This document shows, piece by piece, positions 2,846 to 38,220 of a DNA stretch of 39,149 bases. How positions within the stretch are numbered: position 1 is the first letter of the stretch; every line of letters starts with the position of its first letter. This DNA comes from a bacterium. Lineage in GTDB: Bacteria > Babelota > Babeliae > Babelales > JABCYS01. Both the position numbers and the translations under genes were made by a program. The notes beneath the pieces were generated by a model. That model was not told where the DNA came from, searched no databases, and worked only from the letters and a program-made list of their open reading frames with translations. The stretch spans positions 1 to 39,149 of the forward strand of contig DAIDHG010000002.1 in the NCBI GenBank assembly GCA_027452085.1. Reading direction: 5' to 3'.

Positions 2846-3433
2846 ATGCTAACTCTCAATCTAAAGAACATGTACACCAACGACTTTGAGAAGTTGGTTG
2901 AAAAAGAGATGGATGCACCCATTAAGCATTTTGAGCGTGAGCTGGTTACTATTAGAACCGGCCGTGCCCACCCAGCTTTGGTAGAAGATATCAAGGTTAT
3001 CGTGTATGGTGGCACGCAAATGGCAATCCGCGAGCTTGCTTCAATCACAACACCTGAAGCACGCGTGCTCTTCATCCAACCATGGGATAAATCAATTATA
3101 GCTGATATTGAAAAGGCGATCATGGCATCATCGGTTGGGCTTACGCCAGCAAATGATGGCAATGTTATTCGCATTACTTTGCCTGAGATTAGTAGCCAGC
3201 GTCGCGAAGAACTTATCAAGGTTTTGGGCAAAAAACTTGAAGAAACACGTGAGCGTATCCGTGATGTGCGCGCTACTTTCAGAACTGCCGCTAAAGAAGC
3301 TGAGCGGAAAAAGGAAATCGAGGAAGATTTCTCTCTACGCTTGCAAGATTTGTTGCAAAAGATTCATGATAAATTTATCGCGCTCGCTCAGCAGATGAGT
3401 GATAAGAAAGAAAAAGAGATTAGGTCGGTTTAA
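2846..3433 (+). CDS. frr: Ribosome recycling factor
   Basis: 195 aa. LVTIRTGRAHPALVEDIKV, FIQPWDKS and GLTPANDGNVIRITLPEISSQRREEL are typical RRF blocks. Confidence 0.95.
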   Translation: MLTLNLKNMYTNDFEKLVEKEMDAPIKHFERELVTIRTGRAHPALVEDIKVIVYGGTQMAIRELASITTPEARVLFIQPWDKSIIADIEKAIMASSVGLTPANDGNVIRITLPEISSQRREELIKVLGKKLEETRERIRDVRATFRTAAKEAERKKEIEEDFSLRLQDLLQKIHDKFIALAQQMSDKKEKEIRSV

Positions 3434-3512
3434 AGGGCTTGCGCTAGCAAAGTTTACCGAACGATGCTAGAATGCCCATTATTGAATTTGACTTAATCGT
3501 CTCTGAAATTTT

Positions 3513-3588
3513 GAGCCGCTAGCTCAATCGGTAGAGCAACAGACTCTTAATCTGTGGGTTGTTGGTTCGATTCCAACGCGGCTCACCA
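3513..3588 (+). tRNA. tRNA-Lys (anticodon CUU), CCA encoded
   Basis: Hand-folded cloverleaf. Acceptor gagccgc/gcggctc, D-arm gctc..gagc, anticodon stem acaga/tctgt with loop cTCTTAa, T-arm gttgg-ttcgatt-ccaac, discriminator A, then CCA. Confidence 0.9.
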
Positions 3589-3643
3589 CTAGAGCTCGCC
3601 ATGGGGCGATAAGCTGAATGGGCAGTGGTTTTTGAAAATATTT

Positions 3644-3728
3644 GCACGAGTGGCGAAATCGGCAGACGCACTGGATTTAGGTTCCAGCGCCGCAAGGCAT
3701 GGGGGTTCAAGTCCCTCCTCGTGCACCA
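3644..3728 (+). tRNA. tRNA-Leu (anticodon UAG), class II with long variable arm, CCA encoded
   Basis: Acceptor gcacgag/ctcgtgc, anticodon stem ctgga/tccag with loop ttTAGgt, long variable arm cgccgcaaggcat, T-loop ttcaagt, then A-CCA. Confidence 0.9.
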
Positions 3729-3826
3729 AAATGGTGGTTTAAAAAAAGGAAATCTCCGCTTAACAATGACCTTGATGGGTGTTGCCAAGGTTGATCGTAA
3801 GCGGCAAAAAAAAGAGAGGGTGAGTA

Positions 3827-5173
3827 ATGGATTCTAAGAATTTCGAATTCAACGAACTTCCAGCACAAGAGCAGCCAAGTTCTTTGCGTTTGCAAATTGA
3901 GCAGGCGCATCCACAATTGCTAACGGCTATCATGCATGTGCCGCATGGCATCATTAACCAGCTATATAACGAAGCTTCCGTTGTTCAAAAACGGCAATCC
4001 CATATCTTTGGATTTGCCCGGGGGCATACCCCACTTGGCTATGTTACCGAAGCATTTCGTTCGCACTTAGTTCAACATTTGCATGAGCTTTTGCTCAAAC
4101 ACGTGGTGCTCGATAACTTGTATCAGCAACTTCGTAGCCAGCGCATTGTTGTCAGCGGTGACCCACGGCTTTCTTCGTACGATATCTCCCTTTCATCAGA
4201 ATCTGCGCCTGGCGCCCGCTTTACCTTTGAATGTACGTTAACTGATAACTTTGCATTGCATGGATGGAAATATTTTCCATTTAAAGCGCCAAAACGAAAA
4301 AATTATCGCGATCTTGATCGTGCTGTCGAGCTCTTTATAAAGGGAGTTGAGGATGAGCAGAAGGAGCAAATCCCATCGCAGGCTCAGGTCAATGACTGGG
4401 TTAAGTTTGAACTGTGCATCGTTTCACAGGTGACGAAAGAGCAGATAAGCTCTTGGCAGCCATACTGGATTGTGATTGGCGGCGAAGAAATTGATACGCC
4501 GTTTCGCGAACTCTTTGAAGGCCGAGCCGTAGGTGAGCAATGGTACACAGATTCGCCGGTATTGCAGGAGTTTTTAAGCTCAAAGATGGATACAAATTAT
4601 TTGTTCCAGGTGCGCATTGCTGATTTAGCGCCACATTCACACTTTTCTCTTGAAGATTTTAAAACGCAATTTAGGTTGCGTACGCACAAAGATCTGCATA
4701 AAAAATTGATCGAGGTGTTTTCTTTGCGTAATGACCTCACCCAACGCAGAGAAACTATTGATGCTGTCTTTAAACTGTTGCTCACCAAAAATCCGGTCAC
4801 GCCACCATCGCACATTGTGTTGCGTCGGCAGGAATCACTCTTGATGCACGTGCAAGAAAATCCTGATTATCAAGTGTATCGCATGCAGCGTGGCTTTGAA
4901 AAAAACATCGAAGAACTGGCTGAAAAGCAAGTGAAAGAGCTGATGATTATCGATTATTTAGCCGCTCGAGAAAATATCACGGCATCATCCCAAGATGTGA
5001 GGCAATATCTAAACTTACTCAAGCGTGCTCGTACAAAAGAGTTTGTTTATTTTGATCTTCCCACAACGCGCATATTTGGGCAAGAAATGCCAATTTCTGA
5101 TGAATTGCTCAAGCGGTATTGTATTCGCGAAAAAACATTGAACTATGTGATCCATCATCTGACGAGAAATTGA
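3827..5173 (+). CDS. tig: Trigger factor-like chaperone (divergent)
   Basis: 448 aa. The N-terminal FGFARGHTPLGYV matches the GFRxGxxP ribosome-binding signature. The central segment (IVIGGEEIDTPFRELFEGRAVGEQW) resembles a degenerate FKBP domain. Size and architecture fit TF, and the RBS gagggtgag is present. The sequence is divergent, so this is an inference. Confidence 0.6.
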   Translation: MDSKNFEFNELPAQEQPSSLRLQIEQAHPQLLTAIMHVPHGIINQLYNEASVVQKRQSHIFGFARGHTPLGYVTEAFRSHLVQHLHELLLKHVVLDNLYQQLRSQRIVVSGDPRLSSYDISLSSESAPGARFTFECTLTDNFALHGWKYFPFKAPKRKNYRDLDRAVELFIKGVEDEQKEQIPSQAQVNDWVKFELCIVSQVTKEQISSWQPYWIVIGGEEIDTPFRELFEGRAVGEQWYTDSPVLQEFLSSKMDTNYLFQVRIADLAPHSHFSLEDFKTQFRLRTHKDLHKKLIEVFSLRNDLTQRRETIDAVFKLLLTKNPVTPPSHIVLRRQESLLMHVQENPDYQVYRMQRGFEKNIEELAEKQVKELMIIDYLAARENITASSQDVRQYLNLLKRARTKEFVYFDLPTTRIFGQEMPISDELLKRYCIREKTLNYVIHHLTRN

Positions 5174-5174
5174 G

Positions 5175-6131
5175 ATGCATAAGCTCATTATCATCGGTTC
5201 TGGCCCCGCTGGGTTGACTGCAGCCATATATTCCGGTCGAGCAAACCTTCAGCCGCTTGTTATTGAAGGGCGTGCGCCTGGAGGCCAGCTGATGGGCACC
5301 ACCTTGGTAGAAAATTGGCCTGGTGATAAACGTATCATGGGCCCCCAGTTAATGAGTGAAATGCGCGCGCATGCCGTGGCGTGCGGTGCTCAGTTTGTGA
5401 GCGATGAAGTAGTTGAGATTGTGCCACTCCCCTCGGCCCATAATGGCTGCTCAATGTTTAATATAAAAACGAGCTCATCAGGTGATTTTGAGGCGCATGC
5501 TCTTATCGTAGCCTCAGGTGCCTCACCTAAAAAACTGCATGTGCCTGGCGAGGATACCTATTGGGGCAAAGGAGTGACCACCTGTGCCGTATGCGATGGT
5601 GCCTTGTTTGCTAATAAGCCAGTAGTAGTGGTTGGCGGTGGCGATACGGCCATGGAAGATGCCCTATTTTTGACCAAATACACCGATGATATAACGATTA
5701 TACAGCTTTTTGATAAGCTCACCGCCTCCTATGCCATGCAACAGCCGGTCCTTGCCAATACGAAGATAAAGATTCTGTATCATCAAGCGGTGAAAGAGAT
5801 CATTGGGGAGTCTGGCCATGCGCGCCAACTTGTGGTCACGGATCAGAGAAATGGCGAGCAAACCACCGTGGAAGCTGAAGGCATTTTTATTGCTATTGGC
5901 CAGGTCCCGAATACCAAATTTCTCAAGGGGCTGATCAATCTTGATGAGTATGGGTATGTGCGTCTGCATGAAGCAAAATCGGATAGGTTTAGCATGCTGA
6001 CTGCTACCTCAGTGCCTGGCATATTTGCGGCTGGCGATGTGGCCGATCAGCGTTACCGGCAAGCGATCAGTTCAGCAGGCAGTGGCTGTATGGCAGCGCT
6101 GGACGTTGAGCGTTATCTGAAAAAATATTGA
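5175..6131 (+). CDS. trxB: Thioredoxin-disulfide reductase (low-Mr type)
   Basis: Contains IIIGSGPAGLTAAIY (FAD GxGxxG), the CAVC redox pair (5583..5594), VVVVGGGDTAMEDALFL, GIFAAGDV and YRQAISSAGSGCMAALD. It starts 1 nt after the tig stop. Confidence 0.9.
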   Translation: MHKLIIIGSGPAGLTAAIYSGRANLQPLVIEGRAPGGQLMGTTLVENWPGDKRIMGPQLMSEMRAHAVACGAQFVSDEVVEIVPLPSAHNGCSMFNIKTSSSGDFEAHALIVASGASPKKLHVPGEDTYWGKGVTTCAVCDGALFANKPVVVVGGGDTAMEDALFLTKYTDDITIIQLFDKLTASYAMQQPVLANTKIKILYHQAVKEIIGESGHARQLVVTDQRNGEQTTVEAEGIFIAIGQVPNTKFLKGLINLDEYGYVRLHEAKSDRFSMLTATSVPGIFAAGDVADQRYRQAISSAGSGCMAALDVERYLKKY

Positions 6132-6159
6132 TTCGGCCTGCATTGGCCAAAAGAGCTAT

Positions 6160-6188
6160 TTGAAAAATTACTCATTTTTGCGTATATT
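6160..6188 (+). promoter_or_regulatory. Sigma70-like promoter candidate for rpmH
   Basis: TTGAAA, a 17-nt spacer, then TATATT, about 54 nt upstream of the rpmH ATG. This is a sequence match only. Confidence 0.45.
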
Positions 6189-6241
6189 CTGAGCACTAAT
6201 TTCTCGTAAAAAATACTCGTCTTAATATTTCAGGATAGAAG

Positions 6242-6397
6242 ATGTCAGTTACTTTCAAGCTAAAACGTAAGAAACGCAATAAGAAACATGGCTTTCGCAT
6301 GCGCATGAAATCCAAGGATGGCCGCACCATTATTAACCGCCGCCGTTCTAAGAGCAGAAAGCGTCTAGCGGTTCGCGCACGAAAATCGAAAACATAA
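6242..6397 (+). CDS. rpmH: 50S ribosomal protein L34
   Basis: 51-aa ORF absent from the supplied track because it is under 60 aa: MSVTFKLKRKKRNKKHGFRMRMKSKDGRTIINRRRSKSRKRLAVRARKSKT. It matches the L34 pattern (KR..SHGFR.RM.T..GR.v...RR.KGRKRL). The RBS agga lies in caggatagaag. Confidence 0.85.
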   Translation: MSVTFKLKRKKRNKKHGFRMRMKSKDGRTIINRRRSKSRKRLAVRARKSKT

Positions 6398-6463
6398 GAT
6401 TGCTACTGTTGAGCCATCAATAGTAATCAGGCAGTCTTCAGCATATAATTAATTGAATTATTA

Positions 6464-6494
6464 GAGCGCCCGGCTAAGATAGGTTGTGGCGCTC
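6464..6494 (+). terminator. Possible terminator/attenuator hairpin between rpmH and tolQ
   Basis: gagcgcc / 17-nt loop / ggcgctc, followed by GTTTAATGTT. The loop is long and the T-tract weak. Confidence 0.3.
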
Positions 6495-6520
6495 GTTTAA
6501 TGTTAAAAAGGGTGAATCCT

Positions 6521-18309: not shown

Positions 18310-20955
18310 ATGAAAAAGCGAGCAAAAAGACCACCAATGTTCCAAGGTGCACCACGCAATCTCCTCTTAGTAGTCGGCCTATTAATGATTGGGTTGCTCA
18401 CCCTGGTCAAACTCAATGAATCAATCACCCAAATTAAGCAGCTGAGCTATACCAGCTTCCTCAAAAAGGTAGAGTCGCATGAGGTAAAATCTATCCGTGT
18501 GACCGGCCAGGGGATATGGGGCCAATTTACCTCGGGCGAGCAGTTTGAAACACTGCTGCCTGAAGGGTATCGCGATTGGGATTTCTTTAAAAATAATAAT
18601 GTAGATGTGCTTATTGATTCTCAGGCGGCTCAATGGAGCCTGGGGCTTGTCCTTGGCGGCCTGCTCTCACTCTTTGCCTTAGTCGGACTGGGAGTCTTTC
18701 TATATCGCCAGTCGCGCAACGGCGGCGGTGGTGGCGGCGGCACCATTTTCTCAATGGGCAAAAGCCGTGCTCGTGTATTTATGCCATCACAAATAAAAAC
18801 CAAATTCTCTGATATTGCCGGTGCATCTGAGGCTAAAGAACAGCTAAAAGATGTGGTTGATTACCTGAAATATCCTGAAAAATATCGCCGACTCGGCGCC
18901 AAGGTTACCCGCGGCGTGTTATTGGTAGGTGAGCCAGGCAATGGTAAGACCCTCATGGCCCGCGCCGTTGCTGGTGAGGCCGGTGTGCCATTTTTTAGTA
19001 TTACTGGATCAGACTTTATAGAAGTTTTCGTGGGCGTTGGTGCTTCACGAGTTCGTGATCTCTTTGCCCAAGCGCGCAAATATGCACCGGCAATCATCTT
19101 TATCGATGAAATTGATGCTATCGGCCGCATGCGCGGCAGTGGTCTTGGCGGTGGTCATGATGAGCGTGAGCAAACCCTCAATCAGTTGCTCACTGAGATG
19201 GATGGTTTTGAAACCGGCGATGCGCCACCATTAATTGTTCTTGCTGCAACCAATATGCCAGATGTACTCGATAAGGCCCTGCTTCGCCCGGGTCGATTTG
19301 ATCGTCGGGTGACGGTGCCGTTCCCTGATCTGAAAGATCGCGAACAAATTTTATGGATCCATGCCTCGTCTATTATGCTTGATCCATCAGTTGATCTTGG
19401 CAAAATGGCTGCGGTCACTGCCGGCTTTAGCGGGTCTGATCTGGCCAATTTGGTGAATATTGCTGCTATTAACGCTTCAAAAGCCAACCGATCAGCCGTG
19501 AGCCAAGAGGATTTTGAAGCCGCACATAAAAATATTTTGCAATCACATGCTACTGATGGCACAAAGACATCCGCCGAAAAGAGCGTATATACCCCCAAGA
19601 TGCTGATGCCGGCCCAGATGAAATTGAACTTTAATTCGGTGGCAGGGGCTACTGAAGCCAAAGAAGAGTTAAAAGATGTGGTCGATTTCCTGCGCAATCC
19701 TGAAAAGTACCAGCGTCTTGGTGCCCAAATGCCAAAAGGGGTATTGCTGACCGGCGAACCCGGTAACGGTAAAACCTTGTTGGCCAAGGCGGTGGCTGGA
19801 GAAGCAAATGTGCCGTTCTTTCATGCCAGCGGCTCTGAATTTGTTGAAAAATATGTCGGCGTTGGCGCTGCCCGTGTACGTGAGCTCTTTACCAATGCGC
19901 GCCGCCATGCACCCGCCATCATCTTTATGGATGAAATCGATGCCATTGGCAGTAAGCGAGTGTATGAAGGTGGCGGCTCACAAGAGCATTCCCAAACGTT
20001 AAACCAACTGCTTACTGAGCTTGATGGGTTTGATACTATGACTGGTGGCCCCGTCATTATTATGGGCGCGACCAATAGGCCAGACGTGCTTGATAAAGCT
20101 TTGCTGCGCCCGGGTAGATTTGATAAGCAGGTAGAGGTGCCATACCCAGACTTGGTAAGTCGTAAAAAGATCTTAGAGCTGCATGCCAAAGATAAGAAGA
20201 TTGATCCTTCTATTAGTTTTGATGCGCTGGCCCGCGGCACCCCTGGATTCTCGGGAGCAGAGCTTGCAAATCTTATCAATGAGGCCGTTATTCATGCTTC
20301 CAAGCTGAATAAGGAAATGGCTACATTGTCTGATTTTGAAGAAGCTCGCGATAAGATCCTATTGGGCAAAGAAAGTAAATCAAAACTTCTGACCAAGGAA
20401 GATCTTGAGGTCACGGCATACCATGAAGCTGGCCATGCCTTGGTCCGCTTGCTCTTGCCGCAGCATTCTGACCCTCTGTATAAGATAACCATTATTCCTC
20501 GGGGCCGTGCATTGGGGGTGACCCACTCATTGCCTGAGAAGGAAAGCTATACCCGTGATAAAGAGCATATGCTTGCAAGCATTGCCTCTGCCTTAGGCGG
20601 CCGGGCAGCCGAAGAGATTGTCTTTAACCGTTTAGAAACAGGGGCAGCGAGCGATTTTCAAGCCGCAACCTCTGTGGCTCGGAACATGGTGGTAAATTAC
20701 GGCATGTCGGAAAAGCTTGGCCTGGTTTCCTATGCTGATTTCCGCTATTTATCGCAGCACACGATCCAGCTTATTGACGATGAAATTCGTTCAATAACCA
20801 ATCAGTGCTATGATCGTGCAAAGCATTTGTTGAGCTCGAACCGCGACAAACTGGATCTTTTGGCCAAGAAACTCTTGGAAAAAGAGACTTTGTATGCCGG
20901 TGAGATCTATGAATTGCTTGGCATTACCCCGCGTGAGCAGTTTAAGTTGTCGTAG
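18310..20955 (+). CDS. ftsH: ATP-dependent zinc metalloprotease FtsH with a tandemly duplicated AAA+ module
   Basis: 881 aa. The order is: two TM segments flanking a periplasmic domain; a poly-Gly linker; AAA module 1 (Walker A GEPGNGKT at 18928..18951, Walker [33 protein letters not shown]); AAA module 2 (GEPGNGKT at 19753..19776, [29 protein letters not shown]); then an M41 peptidase with HEAGH (20422..20436). Confidence 0.9.
18778..19539 (+). repeat. FtsH AAA+ module, copy 1 of an intragenic tandem duplication
   Basis: Residues about 157-410 align colinearly with residues about 432-684, at a constant 275-aa offset. By eye roughly two thirds of positions are identical. Confidence 0.85.
19603..20361 (+). 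repeat. FtsH AAA+ module, copy 2 of an intragenic tandem duplication
   Basis: See copy 1. The pore-loop motif is FVGVGA in copy 1 and YVGVGA in copy 2. Confidence 0.85.
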
Positions 20956-32643: not shown

Positions 32644-32677
32644 TAAAAAAGGGACTTCATGAGAAGTCCTTTTTTTT
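32644..32677. terminator. Bidirectional rho-independent terminator (DUF378 gene / DNA ligase gene)
   Basis: aaaaaag-ggacttc-atga-gaagtcc-tttttttt. The 7-bp GC-containing stem is extended by A/T pairs, with U-tracts in both orientations. Confidence 0.7.
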
Positions 32678-33590
32678 ATCTCTTTTTTTGAGCTATCTGA
32701 TCGATAGTACACTGCTTCGCTTTCTTATCGGTTCGTACGCGCAAAAAAACTGGTGCTCGCAAGATGCCATCACGCGTTACCTGTGTGTATTTAATTTCGG
32801 ACGCGGTAACAGGGGAAAGCCAATGAACTTCCTTGAGCTTTTTGGGGTAGATAAACCCCCGAGGCGGTTTTGATCGGTGTCTGCGTTGAAATCTTCTTGC
32901 CAGATCAGCCATATTTTTTTCACTAAACCCAGTGCCAACCTTGCCGATGTACACCAGCTGATTGCCATCATAGAGAGCAAGGATTAAGGCGGAAATTTCT
33001 CTTTTTTCGCTGGTATAGCCCACAATCACTGCATCGACCGAGTCATGAATCTTTATTTTAAGCCAAACCCCACTGCGCTCATTGGGGTAGTATTTACTGT
33101 CGGGAACCTTGGCCATCACCCCCTCCAACTGATGTTTAACCATTTGCTTCCAGAGTGCTTGGCCGTCAGTGGTATCAAAGATTTTCTCTATCTCTTTCCC
33201 GTTGCGAACCGTCTTTTTTAATATTTTTTTTCGCTCAGTCAATGGCAGGTTGGTTAATGTTTTCCCATTTTTTTCGATGATATCAAAAATAATATAGACC
33301 GCCGGTTCTCCTTCTTGTAAGGCTTGGAAATGTGGCATGCCATCTGGTCCATAGGCGATAATTTCGCCATCAACAATAGCATGACGAGCTTTGATAAGTT
33401 TTGGATGTTGTAATTCGGGATATTTGTCGGTGATATTTAACCCATTACGCGAATAGAATGTTAATATGCCATCTTGCTTAACACATAAAGCACGGAATCC
33501 ATCAAGTTTTGGCTCAAAAAGATAATCGGGTGAGGTGAGTATGCTTTTACGACCCCTTTGTGCAAGCATGGGTTTGATTTTTAACGCCAT
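32676..33590 (-). CDS. ATP-dependent DNA ligase, ligase-domain-only (LigD-LIG/LigC-like)
   Basis: Motif I EPKLDGFRAL (adenylated Lys), motif III VYIIFDII, motif IV EGVMAK, motif V GVWLKIK, then an OB domain. There are no polymerase or phosphoesterase domains. It starts 3 nt downstream of ku. Confidence 0.85.
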   Translation of the reverse strand: MALKIKPMLAQRGRKSILTSPDYLFEPKLDGFRALCVKQDGILTFYSRNGLNITDKYPELQHPKLIKARHAIVDGEIIAYGPDGMPHFQALQEGEPAVYIIFDIIEKNGKTLTNLPLTERKKILKKTVRNGKEIEKIFDTTDGQALWKQMVKHQLEGVMAKVPDSKYYPNERSGVWLKIKIHDSVDAVIVGYTSEKREISALILALYDGNQLVYIGKVGTGFSEKNMADLARRFQRRHRSKPPRGFIYPKKLKEVHWLSPVTASEIKYTQVTRDGILRAPVFLRVRTDKKAKQCTIDQIAQKKR

Positions 33591-33593
33591 GAT

Positions 33594-34445
33594 TTACCTT
33601 TTTGAACGTTTAATTGTTTTAGTGCGCTTGGTACTTTTAGGGATGCTCGCTTCTAGGAGCTTAAGAAGGGATGGATGGTGGGTTTCAGCTGACTTCTTTT
33701 CTTTGGGTATTCTTTTCTTTGCAACGTGTCCATGGGCCTCCTCCTTTATTTTCTCTTTGAGCTTCTCCATGAATGTATCTTTAAACTTGGAGATATCGAA
33801 CTTCTTCCCGGTCTGGAGGCTGATTAGTTTTTGTGCAACCTCCATTTCTGGTGCGGATGCCTTCATGGTTTCTACATGGTGATGTTCGTAAGCAAGTTCT
33901 TGAATGGAATTAATTGAAACAACTTCGTAGGTATAGTTTAATGTTGTTATCAATAAAATTCCTTGGTATGCCTCGATTGATACTACATATTCTTTATCTC
34001 GCATGACAAATCGGCCAATAGCAACCTTATTTGTTTTGTGTAAAGCGGCAACAAAAAGTGAGAATGCTTTTTCGCTTGCTTTGTTGCTTGGCCCTGCATA
34101 ATAATGTTGGTCATAGTAGACGGTTGGGATATCTTTGCGTTCTAAAAATTCAACCAGATTAATGGTATCGGTTTTTTCAGGCCTGAGCTTTTTTAGTGCT
34201 TCAGGCGTAATAAGAAAGTAGGTCTCTTTCCCATTGGTATTGTTGAGAGGCAATGCTTTGATTGTTTCATCCCAAGCAACCTCACGGTTACAAGTATCAC
34301 ACCATCGTTTGTTGCGAATTGGCGTTTGACATTTTTCATGCAATAATCGAAAGCCGATAGCATGTGCACGCACGGCGGTGAAAAGTTGAATAGGAATATT
34401 GACAAGGCCGAGCGAGATTGACCCTTTCCAAATGGTTCGTGCCAT
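33594..34445 (-). CDS. ku: Non-homologous end-joining protein Ku
   Basis: MARTIWKGSISLGLVNIPIQLFTAVR is the hallmark bacterial Ku N-terminus. RFVMRDKEYVVSIEAYQGILLITTLNY is the core. The C-terminal tail is basic. I prefer ATG 34445 (RBS aaaggaaaaa); the track start is 34469. Confidence 0.9.
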   Translation of the reverse strand: MARTIWKGSISLGLVNIPIQLFTAVRAHAIGFRLLHEKCQTPIRNKRWCDTCNREVAWDETIKALPLNNTNGKETYFLITPEALKKLRPEKTDTINLVEFLERKDIPTVYYDQHYYAGPSNKASEKAFSLFVAALHKTNKVAIGRFVMRDKEYVVSIEAYQGILLITTLNYTYEVVSINSIQELAYEHHHVETMKASAPEMEVAQKLISLQTGKKFDISKFKDTFMEKLKEKIKEEAHGHVAKKRIPKEKKSAETHHPSLLKLLEASIPKSTKRTKTIKRSKR

Positions 34446-34600
34446 GGTTTTTCCTTTCTTGTTTACCATGAGTATGCCTATACCCTTTTTGGCGTGACAA
34501 GAATTGGTGGCGGTACAACAATCAATCTGTTATCTATCGCCAACTCTTGCGTAAATATAGTTGTTCTTGTTACAACATACATAAGATGTTGGGAGATCCG

Positions 34601-35641
34601 ATGCGAATAAAAAGTTTATTAATCTTATTCACGTTGCCGTTGGTTGCCGATGATATTAACAATCTCATTATTATTGGTTCAGGACCTGCCGGGTTATCTG
34701 CTGCACTGTGTGCAGCTCGCATGCAGCTTTCGCCATTAGTTGTTGAGGGCGCGGATCCAGGCGGAAACTTACTGTATGCCGGCACGATCGAAAATTGGCC
34801 GGGAGAACCTACTATTACTGGCCCCGAACTTATTGGTCGTATGCGCGATCATGCGGCATCTCAAGGAGCGCGTTTTGTATCAAACACCGTGGCAAGCATG
34901 GATCTCACTCAGTGCCCCTTTACCATTTATTTTACCGATGGTTCCCAGCTTGCTACATGGTCAGTGATCATCGCGTCAGGCACATCGCCACAAAAAATTA
35001 ATTGTCCGGGTGAAGAGGAGTATTGGGGCCGAGGAATTGCCATTTGCCCCATTTGTGATGGCCCATTATTTAAAAGGAAAGCAATCGTTGTTGTTGGATC
35101 AGGCGAAGAAGCAATCACGCGCGCATTATTTATGCTGCAATATACCAGCAATATAACGATAATTAGCAATTGTAGTGACATCAATGCCTGCCCATCGCTG
35201 CGCAAAAAATTGTTGGCTGAATCGGCAATCAAAATTATTTTTAATGCACAGGTAACTGAAATTATTGGCGATGGTAATCGAGTGACTGGTGTTAGGATTG
35301 ATTCGAGCGCAGATATTATTCCAGCCGCCGGTATATTTTTAGCATTGGGCGAACAGGGTCGCACTGATTGGTGCGGTACCCAATTAGCGATTGATCAAAA
35401 GGGGTACATCATACTCGATGGCCCAGTGTACACGACAGTTCCCGGCGTTTTTGCTGCAGGTACTGTTGCCACAACGGTATATGGTAGACCATATACATTA
35501 GCACTATCGGCCGCGGGAAGTGGTTGTATGGCCGCTCTTGCGGCATGGAATTATATATGTGATGTACAAGGATCGGTTGATGCATTGCCTGCCGATCTTA
35601 ATAAAACAGTTTGTCCAGATTGTTGGAGCTCTCGATGTTAG
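34601..35641 (+). CDS. Atypical thioredoxin-reductase-like flavoprotein with a hydrophobic N-terminal leader and Cys-rich C-terminal tail
   Basis: ATG 34601 with RBS gggag. Leader MRIKSLLILFTLPLVADD, then IIIGSGPAGLSAALCAA (FAD motif), CPIC (35045..35056), VVVGSGEEAITRALF and GVFAAGTV...SAAGSGCMAAL. A 30-aa tail follows: ICDVQGSVDALPADLNKTVCPDCWSSRC (CPDC at 35612..35623). Confidence 0.8.
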   Translation: MRIKSLLILFTLPLVADDINNLIIIGSGPAGLSAALCAARMQLSPLVVEGADPGGNLLYAGTIENWPGEPTITGPELIGRMRDHAASQGARFVSNTVASMDLTQCPFTIYFTDGSQLATWSVIIASGTSPQKINCPGEEEYWGRGIAICPICDGPLFKRKAIVVVGSGEEAITRALFMLQYTSNITIISNCSDINACPSLRKKLLAESAIKIIFNAQVTEIIGDGNRVTGVRIDSSADIIPAAGIFLALGEQGRTDWCGTQLAIDQKGYIILDGPVYTTVPGVFAAGTVATTVYGRPYTLALSAAGSGCMAALAAWNYICDVQGSVDALPADLNKTVCPDCWSSRC

Positions 35642-38220
35642 CAAAATATGCTACCCAAACCATAGCTGCTGTTTTAGCTCATTTCGGCACTCAACCGGAA
35701 GGTTTAAGTGAGTATGAAGCGCGCCAGCGCTTAAGGAAAGTTGGCTACAATGAAATTTCTCAAAAAGAAGAAGCATGGTGGCATTTGGTCATTCGCCAAA
35801 TTAACTGTTCATTTACGTATCTACTACTTGGTGCCTCTGGTATAGCCTATTTTGTGACTCAAGATAGCCTTGAAGCTACCATCATTATGATTATTGTACT
35901 CATCAACACGGCGCTTGGATTTTTTCAGGAATACCGCGCATCGCGAGCCTTGCAATATCTAAAAAGTTTTATCGTAAGCAAGACGCATGTGCTCCGTGCA
36001 AATACCGTGATTACGGTGCTCACGCGTGAACTGGTGCCTGGTGACATTATTTTGCTTGAAGCGGGCGATATTATACCCGCAGACGTTCGTATTATTGAAA
36101 GCCATGGGTTTCAGGTTGATGAATCAGCATTAACGGGCGAAACGATTGCGGTAGCAAAATCAAGTGCACCTATGGCACAAGAGCCCGAGCATCCATATCA
36201 AGCGACGAACATGTGCTTTGCTTCCACCACGGTTTTGTCAGGCTCAGCACATGCAGTGATTGTAGCAACCGGTTCGGAAATGGTGGTTGGTTCAATCGCA
36301 CAACTATTGAGTGAATCCAAACGTGAAAGTTTATTTGCCAAAAATATTAATGCTTTTTCTCGCTTCATTGCTTGGATGGTGGTTATTGCCAGCATTCTTA
36401 CCATTGGTATGCATGTTATTGTTCGTGGGGCTCCACTTTTTGATCCTGAATATTGGATCTATGTGCTGGCTTTGGCAGTTATTATTGTGCCGGAGCTATT
36501 ACCAACAGTAGTTGCCTTGTCGTTGTCGCAGGGTGCCATGGAATTGGCGCGACGAAAAGTTATTGTAAAGCGACTGACTGCTATCGAAGATTTAGGCAGC
36601 ATTGATATTTTGTGCACCGATAAAACAGGAACGCTTACTGAAAACAAGCTCACGTTGGTAGAAACATATGAAATAGAAAAGCAACTGCTCAAGTATGCCT
36701 GCTTATTTGCCAACCATACGTGCGAAGGCCGCAGCGCACAAGGGCAATCGTCGAATGCTTCGCCATTTGATGATGCGATTATGGCATATACCGATGATGA
36801 TGCCCAAAAGTATGCCTGCAGCTATCGGCCATCTCTGTTTGTGCCGTTTGAGCCGGAACGACGCCGCAGTAGTGCCGTATTTCATAATCCAACAAACAAC
36901 ACCTATCTTTTGGTTGTTTGGGGAGGTCATGAGGAGTTATTAAAGCATTCAAACAATATTTCTGAATCACAAGCAGATGAGATGCAGAAATTTGTTATGC
37001 GCCAGGGCGAGCAAGGGCGCAGGGTTATTGGTATTGCAATCCGTCATTTGACGGCCGAGCCGAGTGATGTGCGTACGGCAGAAGAAAATTTAACATTTGC
37101 TGGTTTGCTTTCATTTGTAGATCCCATCAAGGCAAGCACGTATACCGCAATAAAAGGTGCACAGGAACTTGGGCTTAAGATTAAAATCTTGACCGGTGAT
37201 AGCCCTGAAGTTGCTGGCTATGTGGGCGTGCAGATTGGGCTTTGCCAGTCAATTGGGCAGGTAATGATGGGCGATGTTTTTGCCAAGCTTGGTGATACGG
37301 AAAAACTGGATGCCGTAAAACGGTTTGCCATTTTTGCGCGCGTAAGCCCGCATCAAAAATATGAGATTATAAAGCTCCTGCAAAGCCAAGGTTTTCATGT
37401 TGGCTTCATGGGCGATGGCATCAATGATGCGCCTGCCTTACACGCTGCTCATGTGGCAATGGTTGTTGACGGAGCGACTGATATTGCTCGTGAAGCAGCT
37501 GACATTGTACTGCTCAAAAAGAGTTTGTGTGTCATCATTGATGGCATTCATTATGGCAGAACAATTTTTGCAAACACGGTTAAATATATCAAAGTAAGTT
37601 TGGCGGGGAGCTTTGGTAACTTTTATGCCATGTCTATTATCTCGCTGTTTGTTGATTATTTGCCGATTTTGCCCATCCAAATTCTATTGCTCAACATTCT
37701 TTCGGATATCCCATTACTTGCACTTTCTACCGATTATGTGGAACCTGCCGAGTTGAAAGAGCCAAAGCAATATAGCTTGCGTGATATTGCGATGTTTACG
37801 ACCGGTATGGGCTTGTTTAGCTCGTTATTTGATTTTTCATTGTTCCTGTGGTTTCGCCAATTTGGCGTAGAAATATTACGTACCTGTTGGTTTGTAGGCA
37901 GTATTTTATCTGAAGCGATCTTTTTAATGGTGGTGCGTTCTCGCAAGCCGATATGGCGTGCCGTTGGCCCATCACGTGCCTTGCTCATTCCGTTGATATT
38001 GTCGCTCACATTGACCTTGGCCTTGCCCTCTATGGGCTGGGGGCAGCGCTTCTTTAAATTTGTGCCGCTAAATTGGCAACTTCTGCAATACTTTGTTATC
38101 TTCGGCGCCGTCTATTTTGTAGCAATCGAAGTAGCAAAGCGCATGTACTATCGCTTTGTGATTGGTGACGCAGCGCGCAATGATGAACATAAGAAATCTG
38201 CACAAGGAACCGATTCTTAA
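35635..38220 (+). CDS. mgtA: Magnesium-translocating P-type ATPase (MgtA-like)
   Basis: Cation-ATPase N-terminus (GLSEYEARQRLRKVGYNEI), LTGETIAV, PELLP in TM4, ICTDKTGTLTENKL and MGDGINDAPAL. There are MgtA-specific blocks KYIKVSLAGSFGNFYA and LPILPIQILLLNILSD. ATG 35635 overlaps the upstream stop (ATGTTAG). Confidence 0.8.
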   Translation: MLAKYATQTIAAVLAHFGTQPEGLSEYEARQRLRKVGYNEISQKEEAWWHLVIRQINCSFTYLLLGASGIAYFVTQDSLEATIIMIIVLINTALGFFQEYRASRALQYLKSFIVSKTHVLRANTVITVLTRELVPGDIILLEAGDIIPADVRIIESHGFQVDESALTGETIAVAKSSAPMAQEPEHPYQATNMCFASTTVLSGSAHAVIVATGSEMVVGSIAQLLSESKRESLFAKNINAFSRFIAWMVVIASILTIGMHVIVRGAPLFDPEYWIYVLALAVIIVPELLPTVVALSLSQGAMELARRKVIVKRLTAIEDLGSIDILCTDKTGTLTENKLTLVETYEIEKQLLKYACLFANHTCEGRSAQGQSSNASPFDDAIMAYTDDDAQKYACSYRPSLFVPFEPERRRSSAVFHNPTNNTYLLVVWGGHEELLKHSNNISESQADEMQKFVMRQGEQGRRVIGIAIRHLTAEPSDVRTAEENLTFAGLLSFVDPIKASTYTAIKGAQELGLKIKILTGDSPEVAGYVGVQIGLCQSIGQVMMGDVFAKLGDTEKLDAVKRFAIFARVSPHQKYEIIKLLQSQGFHVGFMGDGINDAPALHAAHVAMVVDGATDIAREAADIVLLKKSLCVIIDGIHYGRTIFANTVKYIKVSLAGSFGNFYAMSIISLFVDYLPILPIQILLLNILSDIPLLALSTDYVEPAELKEPKQYSLRDIAMFTTGMGLFSSLFDFSLFLWFRQFGVEILRTCWFVGSILSEAIFLMVVRSRKPIWRAVGPSRALLIPLILSLTLTLALPSMGWGQRFFKFVPLNWQLLQYFVIFGAVYFVAIEVAKRMYYRFVIGDAARNDEHKKSAQGTDS

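Follow-up and report, generated by a model that had tools for sequence, protein, structure and literature searches.

A gene at positions 34601..35641 (+) of the 39,149-nucleotide stretch of bacterial DNA analyzed here (contig DAIDHG010000002.1, hereafter the window) encodes a 346-residue protein related to thioredoxin reductase (TrxR), and we give about even credence to the reading that it is a periplasmic, NADPH-independent thiol:O2 oxidoreductase in which a cysteine-bearing C-terminal tail serves as an electron relay. By sequence, the closest family is that of the TrxRs of low relative molecular mass (low-Mr TrxR, or TrxB; TIGR01292; e.g., PDB 4A5L and 1TDE), with a best PDB match at E=5.9e-60 and 36% identity. 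The TrxR-like protein shares with this family the two-domain fold, the GxGxxG motif for flavin adenine dinucleotide (FAD), and a CxxC-D center in the pyridine-nucleotide domain. It differs, however, by a signal peptide, the loss of GGGDxAxE and HRRxxxR, a GD to GT change, a four-residue insertion, a YTLA motif, and a 26-residue Cys tail. The open reading frame had been singled out for its leader, altered motifs, and tail in an original prediction made from the DNA letters, and both the frame and the oddities listed there were recovered in the sequence and its translation.

The TrxR-like gene is real and under strong purifying selection. Three close orthologs (P0002, P0003, and P0004, at 75%, 72%, and 68% identity) form with the window protein a set of four sequences in which all of its features are retained; orthologs devoid of leader and tail would have pointed to an artifact, and all four sequences carry both. 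Among these four genes, the pairwise ratio of nonsynonymous to synonymous substitution (dN/dS) is 0.08–0.10, and dS, at more than 2, is saturated; the odd features have therefore been kept by selection rather than by recent shared ancestry. The protein matches Pfam Pyr_redox_2 (E=1.5e-34), but its 273.3 bits on the TIGR01292 TrxR equivalog model fall under the cutoff of 343.45, whereas the TrxB encoded at 5175..6131 reaches 350.4 bits and is, as had been proposed, the canonical one. Pfam, TIGR01292, and AlphaFold2 (AF2) together predict a mature TrxR-fold flavoprotein spanning residues 17–346 (34649..35638, +). The AF2 model has a predicted local distance difference test score (pLDDT) of 90 and compares with TrxR structures in the flavin-oxidizing (FO) state at template-modeling scores of 0.76–0.82, versus ~0.6 for the flavin-reducing (FR) state. 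As modeled, the protein thus has the low-Mr TrxR two-domain fold in the FO conformation, and by sequence descent it is a divergent TrxB paralog.

The case for export begins with the leader (34601..34648, +), which reads MRIKSLLILFTLPLVA and is followed by DD. It combines an n-region of charge +2 (R2 and K4), an h-region of about 12 residues, and a c-region with Pro at position −4, L-V-A at −3 to −1, and acidic residues thereafter, and a rule-based reading predicts cleavage after Ala16, before D17, leaving a mature N-terminus that begins four residues before β1. This format is conserved in the orthologs, with Pro at −4 and (L/V)-x-A at −3 to −1 in four of four, while the leader codons differ synonymously between loci (CGA/AGA, TTA/TTG, CCG/CCC). 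The Shine-Dalgarno sequence GGGAGAT (34591..34597, +) lies 4–6 nt before the ATG at 34601, and its GGAGAT, directly upstream of the ATG, is invariant at all four orthologous loci, which fixes the start and hence means that the leader is translated. A later start at the TTG of L14, which would drop the leader, was rejected in view of this Shine-Dalgarno sequence and because the leader evolves as coding sequence. The leader of the window protein contains no twin arginine, lipobox, or Cys and is of neither the Tat nor the lipoprotein type. We therefore predict a cleavable Sec-type signal peptide and a location outside the cytoplasm; low-Mr TrxRs are cytoplasmic and carry no export signal, whereas a signal-format leader is present here on the rule-based reading. 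The format recurs in further window proteins that are predicted to be secreted (e.g., MKKQLITMALVAITASTISA followed by KK), and the diderm envelope genes of the window, encoding TolQ/TolR as well as TonB-C- and PD40-domain (TolA/TolB-like) proteins, lead us to expect a periplasm. A lipobox leader, MKKLFLWILCVLSSC, appears in the more distant relative L011 (41% identical, ATPase-linked) when it is read from a GTG preceded by a Shine-Dalgarno sequence. The gene caller had used an internal ATG in L011, and the GTG 45 nt upstream (3900..3944) adds this lipoprotein signal; miscalled starts of the same kind could conceal export signals in the TrxR-like family.

The original prediction had allowed the leader to be either a Sec signal or a membrane anchor and had considered a membrane-tethered redox module. 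An uncleaved anchor would make the protein a membrane-tethered cytoplasmic disulfide reductase, fed by NADH or another donor and using its CxxC tail as in high-Mr TrxR. The n/h/c format and the cleavage site favor the Sec signal, and we consider tethering distinctly unlikely, since the hydrophobic stretch, with its roughly 12 residues, is not long enough to cross a bilayer as an anchor would. In addition, the positive charges before the core and the acidic DD after it, with Pro at −4 and (L/V)-x-A, correspond to an N-in/C-out cleavable format, and the lipobox of L011 belongs to yet another exported type. The remaining evidence on the tethered reductase comes from the cofactor sites.

The FAD motif GSGPAG (G26–G31; 34676..34693, +) is invariant in the alignments, and so, in four orthologs, is the redox-active CPIC (C149 and C152; 35045..35056, +), which is followed by D153-G-P-L-F-K and aligns with CATC(D) of Escherichia coli TrxR and with CPHCDGPLFK of AhpF. 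The pyridine-nucleotide site (35096..35194, +) appears vestigial when its motifs are compared by the criteria of PMC4894451. GSGEEAIT (35096..35119; GSGEEA at 35096..35113) stands where GGGDxAxE is expected, and SNCSDINACP (35165..35194), which contains no basic residue, where HRRxxxR is expected; across the four orthologs, GGGDxAxE has become G[SC]G[ED]xAxT and the HRRxxxR segment is devoid of basic residues in all. Judged by these motifs, the NADPH signature typical of low-Mr TrxRs (GGGDxAxE plus the HRRxxxR basics) is lost. The flavin-side loop GTVATTVYGRPYTLA (35459..35503, +) is also altered, with GD changed to GT, four residues inserted, and YRQA changed to YTLA, and its motif G-T-V-A-T...G-R-P-Y-T-L-A, in which GRP belongs to the insertion, is invariant in four orthologs. 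The residue also differs at three positions that we take to contact FAD (N for Q, T for D, and L for Q).

The replacement of GGGDTA by GSGEEA and the disruption of YRQA, both pointed out originally, therefore hold in the alignments. The missing HRR arginines are likewise a true feature of the paralog, but not a distinguishing one, because the canonical TrxB and other Dependentiae TrxBs also lack them. At the corresponding place, the TrxB of 5175..6131 reads IIQLFDKLTAS, without NADPH-specifying arginines, like the Thermosipho TrxR 7JYP (VQNLPYLTAA), and most of the Dependentiae TrxBs retrieved are the same; the cytoplasmic TrxB of Dependentiae may use NADH or another donor. For a tethered reductase, it can be said that the G-x-G-x-x-A of the NAD domain is intact, that the phylum's bona fide TrxBs, being without HRR, may use NADH, and that many related TrxR–thioredoxin fusions have long N-terminal transmembrane anchors and keep the NADPH-site basics. 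The loss of GGGDxAxE speaks against it, as does the fact that related clade members even break GxGxxA.

The third line of evidence for a thiol oxidase with a relay is the C-terminal region (35555..35638, +), ...YICDVQGSVDALPADLNKTVCPDCWSSRC, which comprises C320, a linker, C338-P-D-C341, W342-S-S, R345, and C346. The codon of C320 (35558..35560) falls at the end of the last helix, and those of CPDC occupy 35612..35623. C320, C338, C341, and WSS are invariant in four orthologs, while the linker and the extreme end vary. Of the four tail cysteines originally described, including those of CPDC, all are present, but C346 is not conserved: its TGT codon overlaps the ATG+T of the downstream gene for an MgtA-like P-type ATPase, and it is absent in P0002 and replaced by 'CC...' in P0003 and P0004. 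P0002 ends earlier (TAATG), and P0003 and P0004 extend 10 codons over the N-terminus of the ATPase. A lack of conservation would have spoken against the tail, but the other three cysteines are invariant. We regard a built-in dithiol relay, as first suggested, as a reasonable reading of these conserved cysteines, while the membrane tethering that went with it is not supported.

The tail also houses the initiation region of the ATPase gene. In ATGTTAG (35635..35641), the stop codon of the TrxR-like gene overlaps the ATPase start, and the GGAG Shine-Dalgarno sequence of the ATPase (35625..35628, +) lies within the W342-S343 codons. When the four loci are aligned at the junction (...TGT TGG AG(C/T) TC(T/G) nnA TG...), GGAG and the ATG 6 nt downstream are invariant. 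The overlap is present as originally described, the coupling proposed for it is supported, and by its junction the TrxR-like gene is translationally coupled to the ATPase gene. Because the W342-S343-S344 codons (TGG AGC TCT) hold both the GGAG and the spacer, the conservation of WSS is not purely protein-level. One could go further and see the tail as mere read-through into the ATPase initiation region, appended to a decaying or non-enzymatic paralog: the overlap with the Shine-Dalgarno sequence and start accounts for WSS and C346, and the three altered FAD-contact positions would fit. This explanation is highly improbable, however, given the low dN/dS over saturated dS, the invariance of the altered residues themselves among orthologs, the location of the invariant C320, C338, and C341 upstream of the Shine-Dalgarno sequence, and the recurrence of a C-W pair in L011, 40 nt from any Shine-Dalgarno sequence.

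Relatives have tails in which one Cys stands beside an aromatic residue (MYC, VYC, YFCC, SYCYC, and ECW), and L011, P0122, and P0130 carry a single tail Cys. Tail cysteines occur in 20 of 50 leader-bearing short TrxR-likes versus 6 of 112 leaderless ones, although these sequences are not independent. P0083 represents a separate leader-bearing TrxR-like subfamily with a Cys-rich tail of its own, CEGC...C (...LSCEGCSIHGRCDAA), and tail CxxC motifs may accordingly have arisen more than once.

Close relatives of the protein are few. Among 5.8 billion clustered proteins there are only three, the rest being at most 45% identical and mostly ordinary TrxBs; the few matches in this lower range that have a name mostly bear the labels Candidatus Dependentiae, Babeliales, or Babeliaceae. 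When 1.84 billion representatives were searched with a profile, the matches following the known set were P0122 at 309 bits and then others at ~275 bits, with no additional close member, and a scan of GTDB genomes added one locus only, from the same metagenome-assembled genome as L001. In a neighbor-joining tree, the window clade joins P0122 and then P0124, P0130, and P0152, all of them nested in a clade of 17 short TrxR-likes that have signal-peptide-like leaders and lack HRR. Several members of this clade have a disrupted GxGxxA (GGDERA, GGKFPA, GSNNIA), and GD is replaced by G[TNS] in 9 of the 17. Short signal-like h-regions go together with the loss of the NADPH-site basics (44 vs 72 sequences, Fisher p=5e-5), again in sequences that are not independent. 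The clade is undescribed, and its signal-peptide-bearing TrxR-likes, with degenerate NAD(P)H sites and a tail Cys, apparently come from Dependentiae; the name under which its members appear in databases, where they have any, 'thioredoxin reductase (NADPH)', is probably wrong. A much larger, separate family (P0126, P0127, P0156, P0164, P0239, and ~60 others) has a long N-terminus resembling a transmembrane anchor, a TrxR module, and a C-terminal thioredoxin domain; it keeps the NADPH-site basics, resembles a membrane-anchored NTRC, and includes some proteins (P0129, P0203) with two TrxR modules. P0121 (1427 residues), which looks eukaryotic by eye and has N-terminal repeats followed by two TrxR modules, ranked second in the profile search only because of its two TrxR domains.

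According to the mechanism that we propose, the Sec pathway would export this low-Mr TrxR-fold FAD protein, with removal of the 16-residue signal after Ala16, into the periplasm of a diderm that is probably a member of the Dependentiae. The periplasm contains no NAD(P)H, which together with the decayed 2'-phosphate/GGGDxAxE pocket suggests that electrons would flow in the direction opposite to that in TrxR. Periplasmic substrate thiols, on a protein or on a small thiol such as glutathione (GSH), would reduce C338/C341 of the tail, possibly with the involvement of C320; the flexible tail would then hand the electrons to the FAD-proximal C149–C152 (CPIC) disulfide, which could plausibly lie in the other subunit; and from there they would pass to FAD and on to O2, yielding H2O2. 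The enzyme would in other words be a sulfhydryl oxidase with a shuttle disulfide. We base this scheme on the predicted export taken together with the decayed NADPH site, on the precedents of the fungal secreted sulfhydryl oxidases and of AhpF, and on the reported lack of an electron transport chain in TM6/Dependentiae. We infer all of its elements alike, namely export and cleavage, FAD loading outside the cytoplasm, O2 as the acceptor, shuttling by the tail, and the substrate. The analogy to the tail of high-Mr TrxRs that was drawn originally does not fit, as that tail works reductively, which is the wrong direction for a compartment without NAD(P)H. At the level of expression, a conserved promoter-like region of its own would drive transcription of the TrxR-like gene, and the ribosome-binding site within the tail codons would couple translation of the ATPase.

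It is possible, although we are clearly less confident of this, that Dependentiae make their periplasmic disulfides with this Sec-exported, TrxR-derived flavoprotein, with O2 as acceptor and the Cys tail as shuttle, as a counterpart of Ero1, Erv2, and QSOX. DsbB requires quinones. The TM6/Dependentiae are reported to be without an electron transport chain (PMC4776705), so that DsbB or VKOR would be left without quinones there. Literature searches returned no account of a TrxR-like oxidase that bacteria export, and a bacterial exported thiol oxidase of TrxR type is probably a kind of enzyme so far undescribed in bacteria.

A flexible Cys-pair segment that shuttles between substrates and a flavin-proximal disulfide is found in Erv2p, Ero1, and QSOX, as well as in high-Mr TrxR and MerA. 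The same design principle would apply here, where tail shuttling is only proposed, but Erv and Ero1 have folds unrelated to that of the TrxR-like protein, and high-Mr TrxR and MerA have the class I glutathione reductase fold. Like DsbB, VKOR, and MauE, the protein would hypothetically supply oxidizing equivalents to the periplasm; those are quinone-linked integral membrane proteins, whereas the flavoprotein described here is soluble and would have O2 as its direct acceptor. Among TrxR-fold proteins, FFTR, DTR, and DDOR (PDB 6GNA, 5J60, and 5N0J) no longer possess the NADPH site and bear C-terminal extensions close to the flavin. They are cytoplasmic, however, with no signal peptide and no tail Cys, and their sequence matches (E=1e-37 to 1e-12) are weaker than those of true TrxRs. 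AhpF has a nearly identical center (CPxCDGPLFK), and the CxxC close to its flavin exchanges with another CxxC, borne by an appended module, but it is a cytoplasmic, NADH-dependent enzyme whose second CxxC sits in an N-terminal double thioredoxin-fold domain that the TrxR-like protein lacks; on TIGR03140 (AhpF), the latter scores 183 bits against a cutoff of 503.

By predicted function, the protein would most resemble DepH, GliT, and HlmI and the fungal sulfhydryl oxidases (SOX) AnSOX and AoSOX1, with which it shares the TrxR-like fold, a CxxC near FAD, and the loss of GGGDxAxE and the basic residues. In DepH, GliT, and HlmI, which are O2-using dithiol oxidases, this loss explains the independence from NADP+ (PMC4894451), and the fungal secreted sulfhydryl oxidases are TrxR-related proteins with signal peptides and a CPWC center (PMC2936869). 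The Pro after the first Cys is also shared (CP[YF]C or CPWC in DepH, GliT, HlmI, and SOX, and CPIC here), although CPIC has an aliphatic residue where the oxidases have an aromatic one (C-[P/L]-[Y/F]-C, CPWC), and AhpF, a reductase, also has CPHC. The signal peptide and O2 use are features of the fungal enzymes, whereas export of the TrxR-like protein is a prediction, and none of these oxidases, which are either secreted by fungi or cytoplasmic enzymes of biosynthesis, has a redox tail. The TrxR-like protein appears to derive independently from the phylum's own TrxB lineage. It is like these oxidases in predicted function yet not a member of their families, being distant in sequence and without the His before the CxxC.

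The resemblance to the fungal enzymes also raises the alternative of a periplasmic small-thiol oxidase that generates no protein disulfides and instead, for example, oxidizes host glutathione that has leaked into an intracellular parasite's periplasm or makes H2O2. The same evidence for export and NADPH loss would apply to it, signs of parasitism (ankyrin-repeat proteins and a TLC ATP/ADP translocase) occur in the window and related loci, and the fungal secreted TrxR-like SOXs do use small thiols such as GSH (PMC2936869). We nevertheless find it fairly unlikely, because DepH and GliT need no second, tail-borne Cys pair, and the conserved tail cysteines argue for a relay to macromolecular partners.

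Several points weigh against an exported thiol oxidase with a tail relay. Export is read from the sequence by rules, and a Sec-exported flavoprotein without a Tat motif must take up its FAD outside the cytoplasm, which is possible but uncommon. The argument from NADPH loss is weakened by the window's own cytoplasmic TrxB, which is also without HRR, and the Rossmann fingerprint G-x-G-x-x-A remains intact in the window clade, so that some dinucleotide binding is conceivable. HlmI (4NTD, 2.1e-20) and DepH (4NTE/4JN9, ~4e-11) are much more distant from the protein in sequence than true TrxRs are (E=6e-60). In DepH, a His directly before the CxxC is, with Arg62, linked to an O2 channel (PMC4894451); this His of DepH, GliT, and HlmI corresponds to Ile148 in the window protein and to Ile or Val in the four orthologs. 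Conservation of the tail is in part (WSS and C346) due to the overlapping initiation region of the ATPase. AF2 has low confidence for residues 326–346, the pLDDT of tail and leader being ~50–65, and the model gives no confident tail position from which its reach to CPIC could be judged. As regards the wider role in disulfide formation, no DsbA-like partner was seen among the genes of the 39 kb window, and the absence of quinones follows from a phylum assignment by best-match names, not from the genome itself.

The conserved link to the ATPase gene gives rise to a further alternative. This gene (35635..38220, +), whose start is conserved, matches Pfam E1-E2_ATPase, Cation_ATPase_N/C, and Hydrolase, and at 565.4 bits falls under the 610.75 cutoff of TIGR01524 (Mg-translocating P-type ATPase); MgtA-like is the most suitable name for it. 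At all four close loci, the genes are arranged as YchF-LigD-Ku <-> TrxR-like -> ATPase -> MreC, and three divergent loci with other flanks repeat the arrangement of a TrxR-like gene immediately before an orthologous ATPase gene, namely L011 (ATPase 52% identical), the P0279 locus (48%), and L012 (50%), the last with a TAATG stop-start overlap. The pairing thus extends over 7 loci, with TrxR-like identity down to ~41% and ATPase identity of 48–77%, whereas 3 relatives (4 loci) do not show it: P0122 and P0124 have no ATPase beside them, and P0130 keeps the downstream Dus-MreC-S49 order with the ATPase missing. Synteny with the ATPase, whose absence would have spoken against the original prediction, holds at the seven loci but not for these relatives, whose neighbors are unrelated secreted proteins with no common partner found. 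Part of the clade keeps the two genes as an operon.

The TrxR-like protein could on this basis be an accessory subunit or a metal or redox sensor of the MgtA-like ATPase, its Cys tail binding metal or sensing thiols and the protein modulating or maturing the pump. The position directly upstream of orthologous ATPase genes, the stop-start overlaps (ATGTTAG and TAATG) kept while the flanks differ, and the presence of a DsbB gene next to a homologous ATPase gene in another lineage would all agree with this. We judge it unlikely, however, and found no specific support for the metal- or thiol-sensing partner of the original prediction: the pump is of the Mg2+/H+ type rather than a soft-metal P1B ATPase, the TrxR-linked ATPases have no conserved extracytoplasmic Cys, the number of tail cysteines varies down to one (L011, P0122, P0130), and the three unlinked relatives do without the ATPase, one of them at the syntenic position itself. 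The idea that the ATPase is a disulfide substrate was rejected as well, because no Cys is specifically conserved outside the cytoplasmic domains of the linked ATPases.

The DsbB-family gene in question (3371..3811, −) lies at locus L013 (GCA_964474775.1), divergently beside a gene for a 45%-identical MgtA-like ATPase (4001..6505, +), in the position held by the TrxR-like gene in the window; this is a single case and may be coincidence. Another locus, L010, has an 85%-identical ATPase (P0276) with no TrxR-like gene upstream, but it was rejected as evidence for co-loss because the contig was judged by eye to be chimeric. The proteins encoded left of ~5000, of the Era and RNase III types, have by eye a high-GC look (many R, A, and G residues), unlike those on the other side, where a truncated ATPase of the Dependentiae type (513 residues) and MreC follow.

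Upstream, a divergent pair of genes for Ku and an ATP-dependent DNA ligase, of the non-homologous end joining type (32676..34469, −), directly precedes the TrxR-like gene and is kept at the four close loci. The intergenic region between Ku and the TrxR-like gene (34470..34600) contains long blocks that are near-invariant in the four loci despite saturated synonymous sites, namely CAAGAATTGGTG, CAAnTCTTGC, and TTCTTGTTACAACA, in which CAAGA and TCTTG form inverted repeats. They include near-invariant promoter-like elements (34547..34576, +), with TTGCGT as a −35 element (34547..34552) and TGtTACAAC as an extended −10 element (34568..34576), a pair that a promoter scan did not list. A riboswitch or RNA leader at 34470..34600 was rejected, as there was no Rfam match above noise, RNAalifold gave −4 kcal/mol, and no compensatory pairs were seen. 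By sequence, the conserved blocks are probably divergent promoters or an operator. Elsewhere in the window, an FtsH-like protease (18310..20955; FtsH_ext plus Peptidase_M41) contains AAA and AAA-lid stretches twice each rather than once.

Disulfide formation in bacteria that have neither DsbB nor VKOR is an acknowledged open problem. According to a 2026 preprint that adds MauE to the known systems, ~20% of bacterial species are without DsbB, VKOR, and MauE, and more pathways are still to be found. If our reading is correct, the exported, NADPH-independent TrxR-fold flavoprotein described here would be a testable candidate for a disulfide pathway in this phylum, whose members are obligate parasites, and, should it indeed make periplasmic disulfides, it would add one to the oxidative-folding pathways that are still missing. 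It would also mean that the TrxR scaffold has been turned from a reductase into an oxidase a second time, independently of the fungal SOX and of DepH and GliT.

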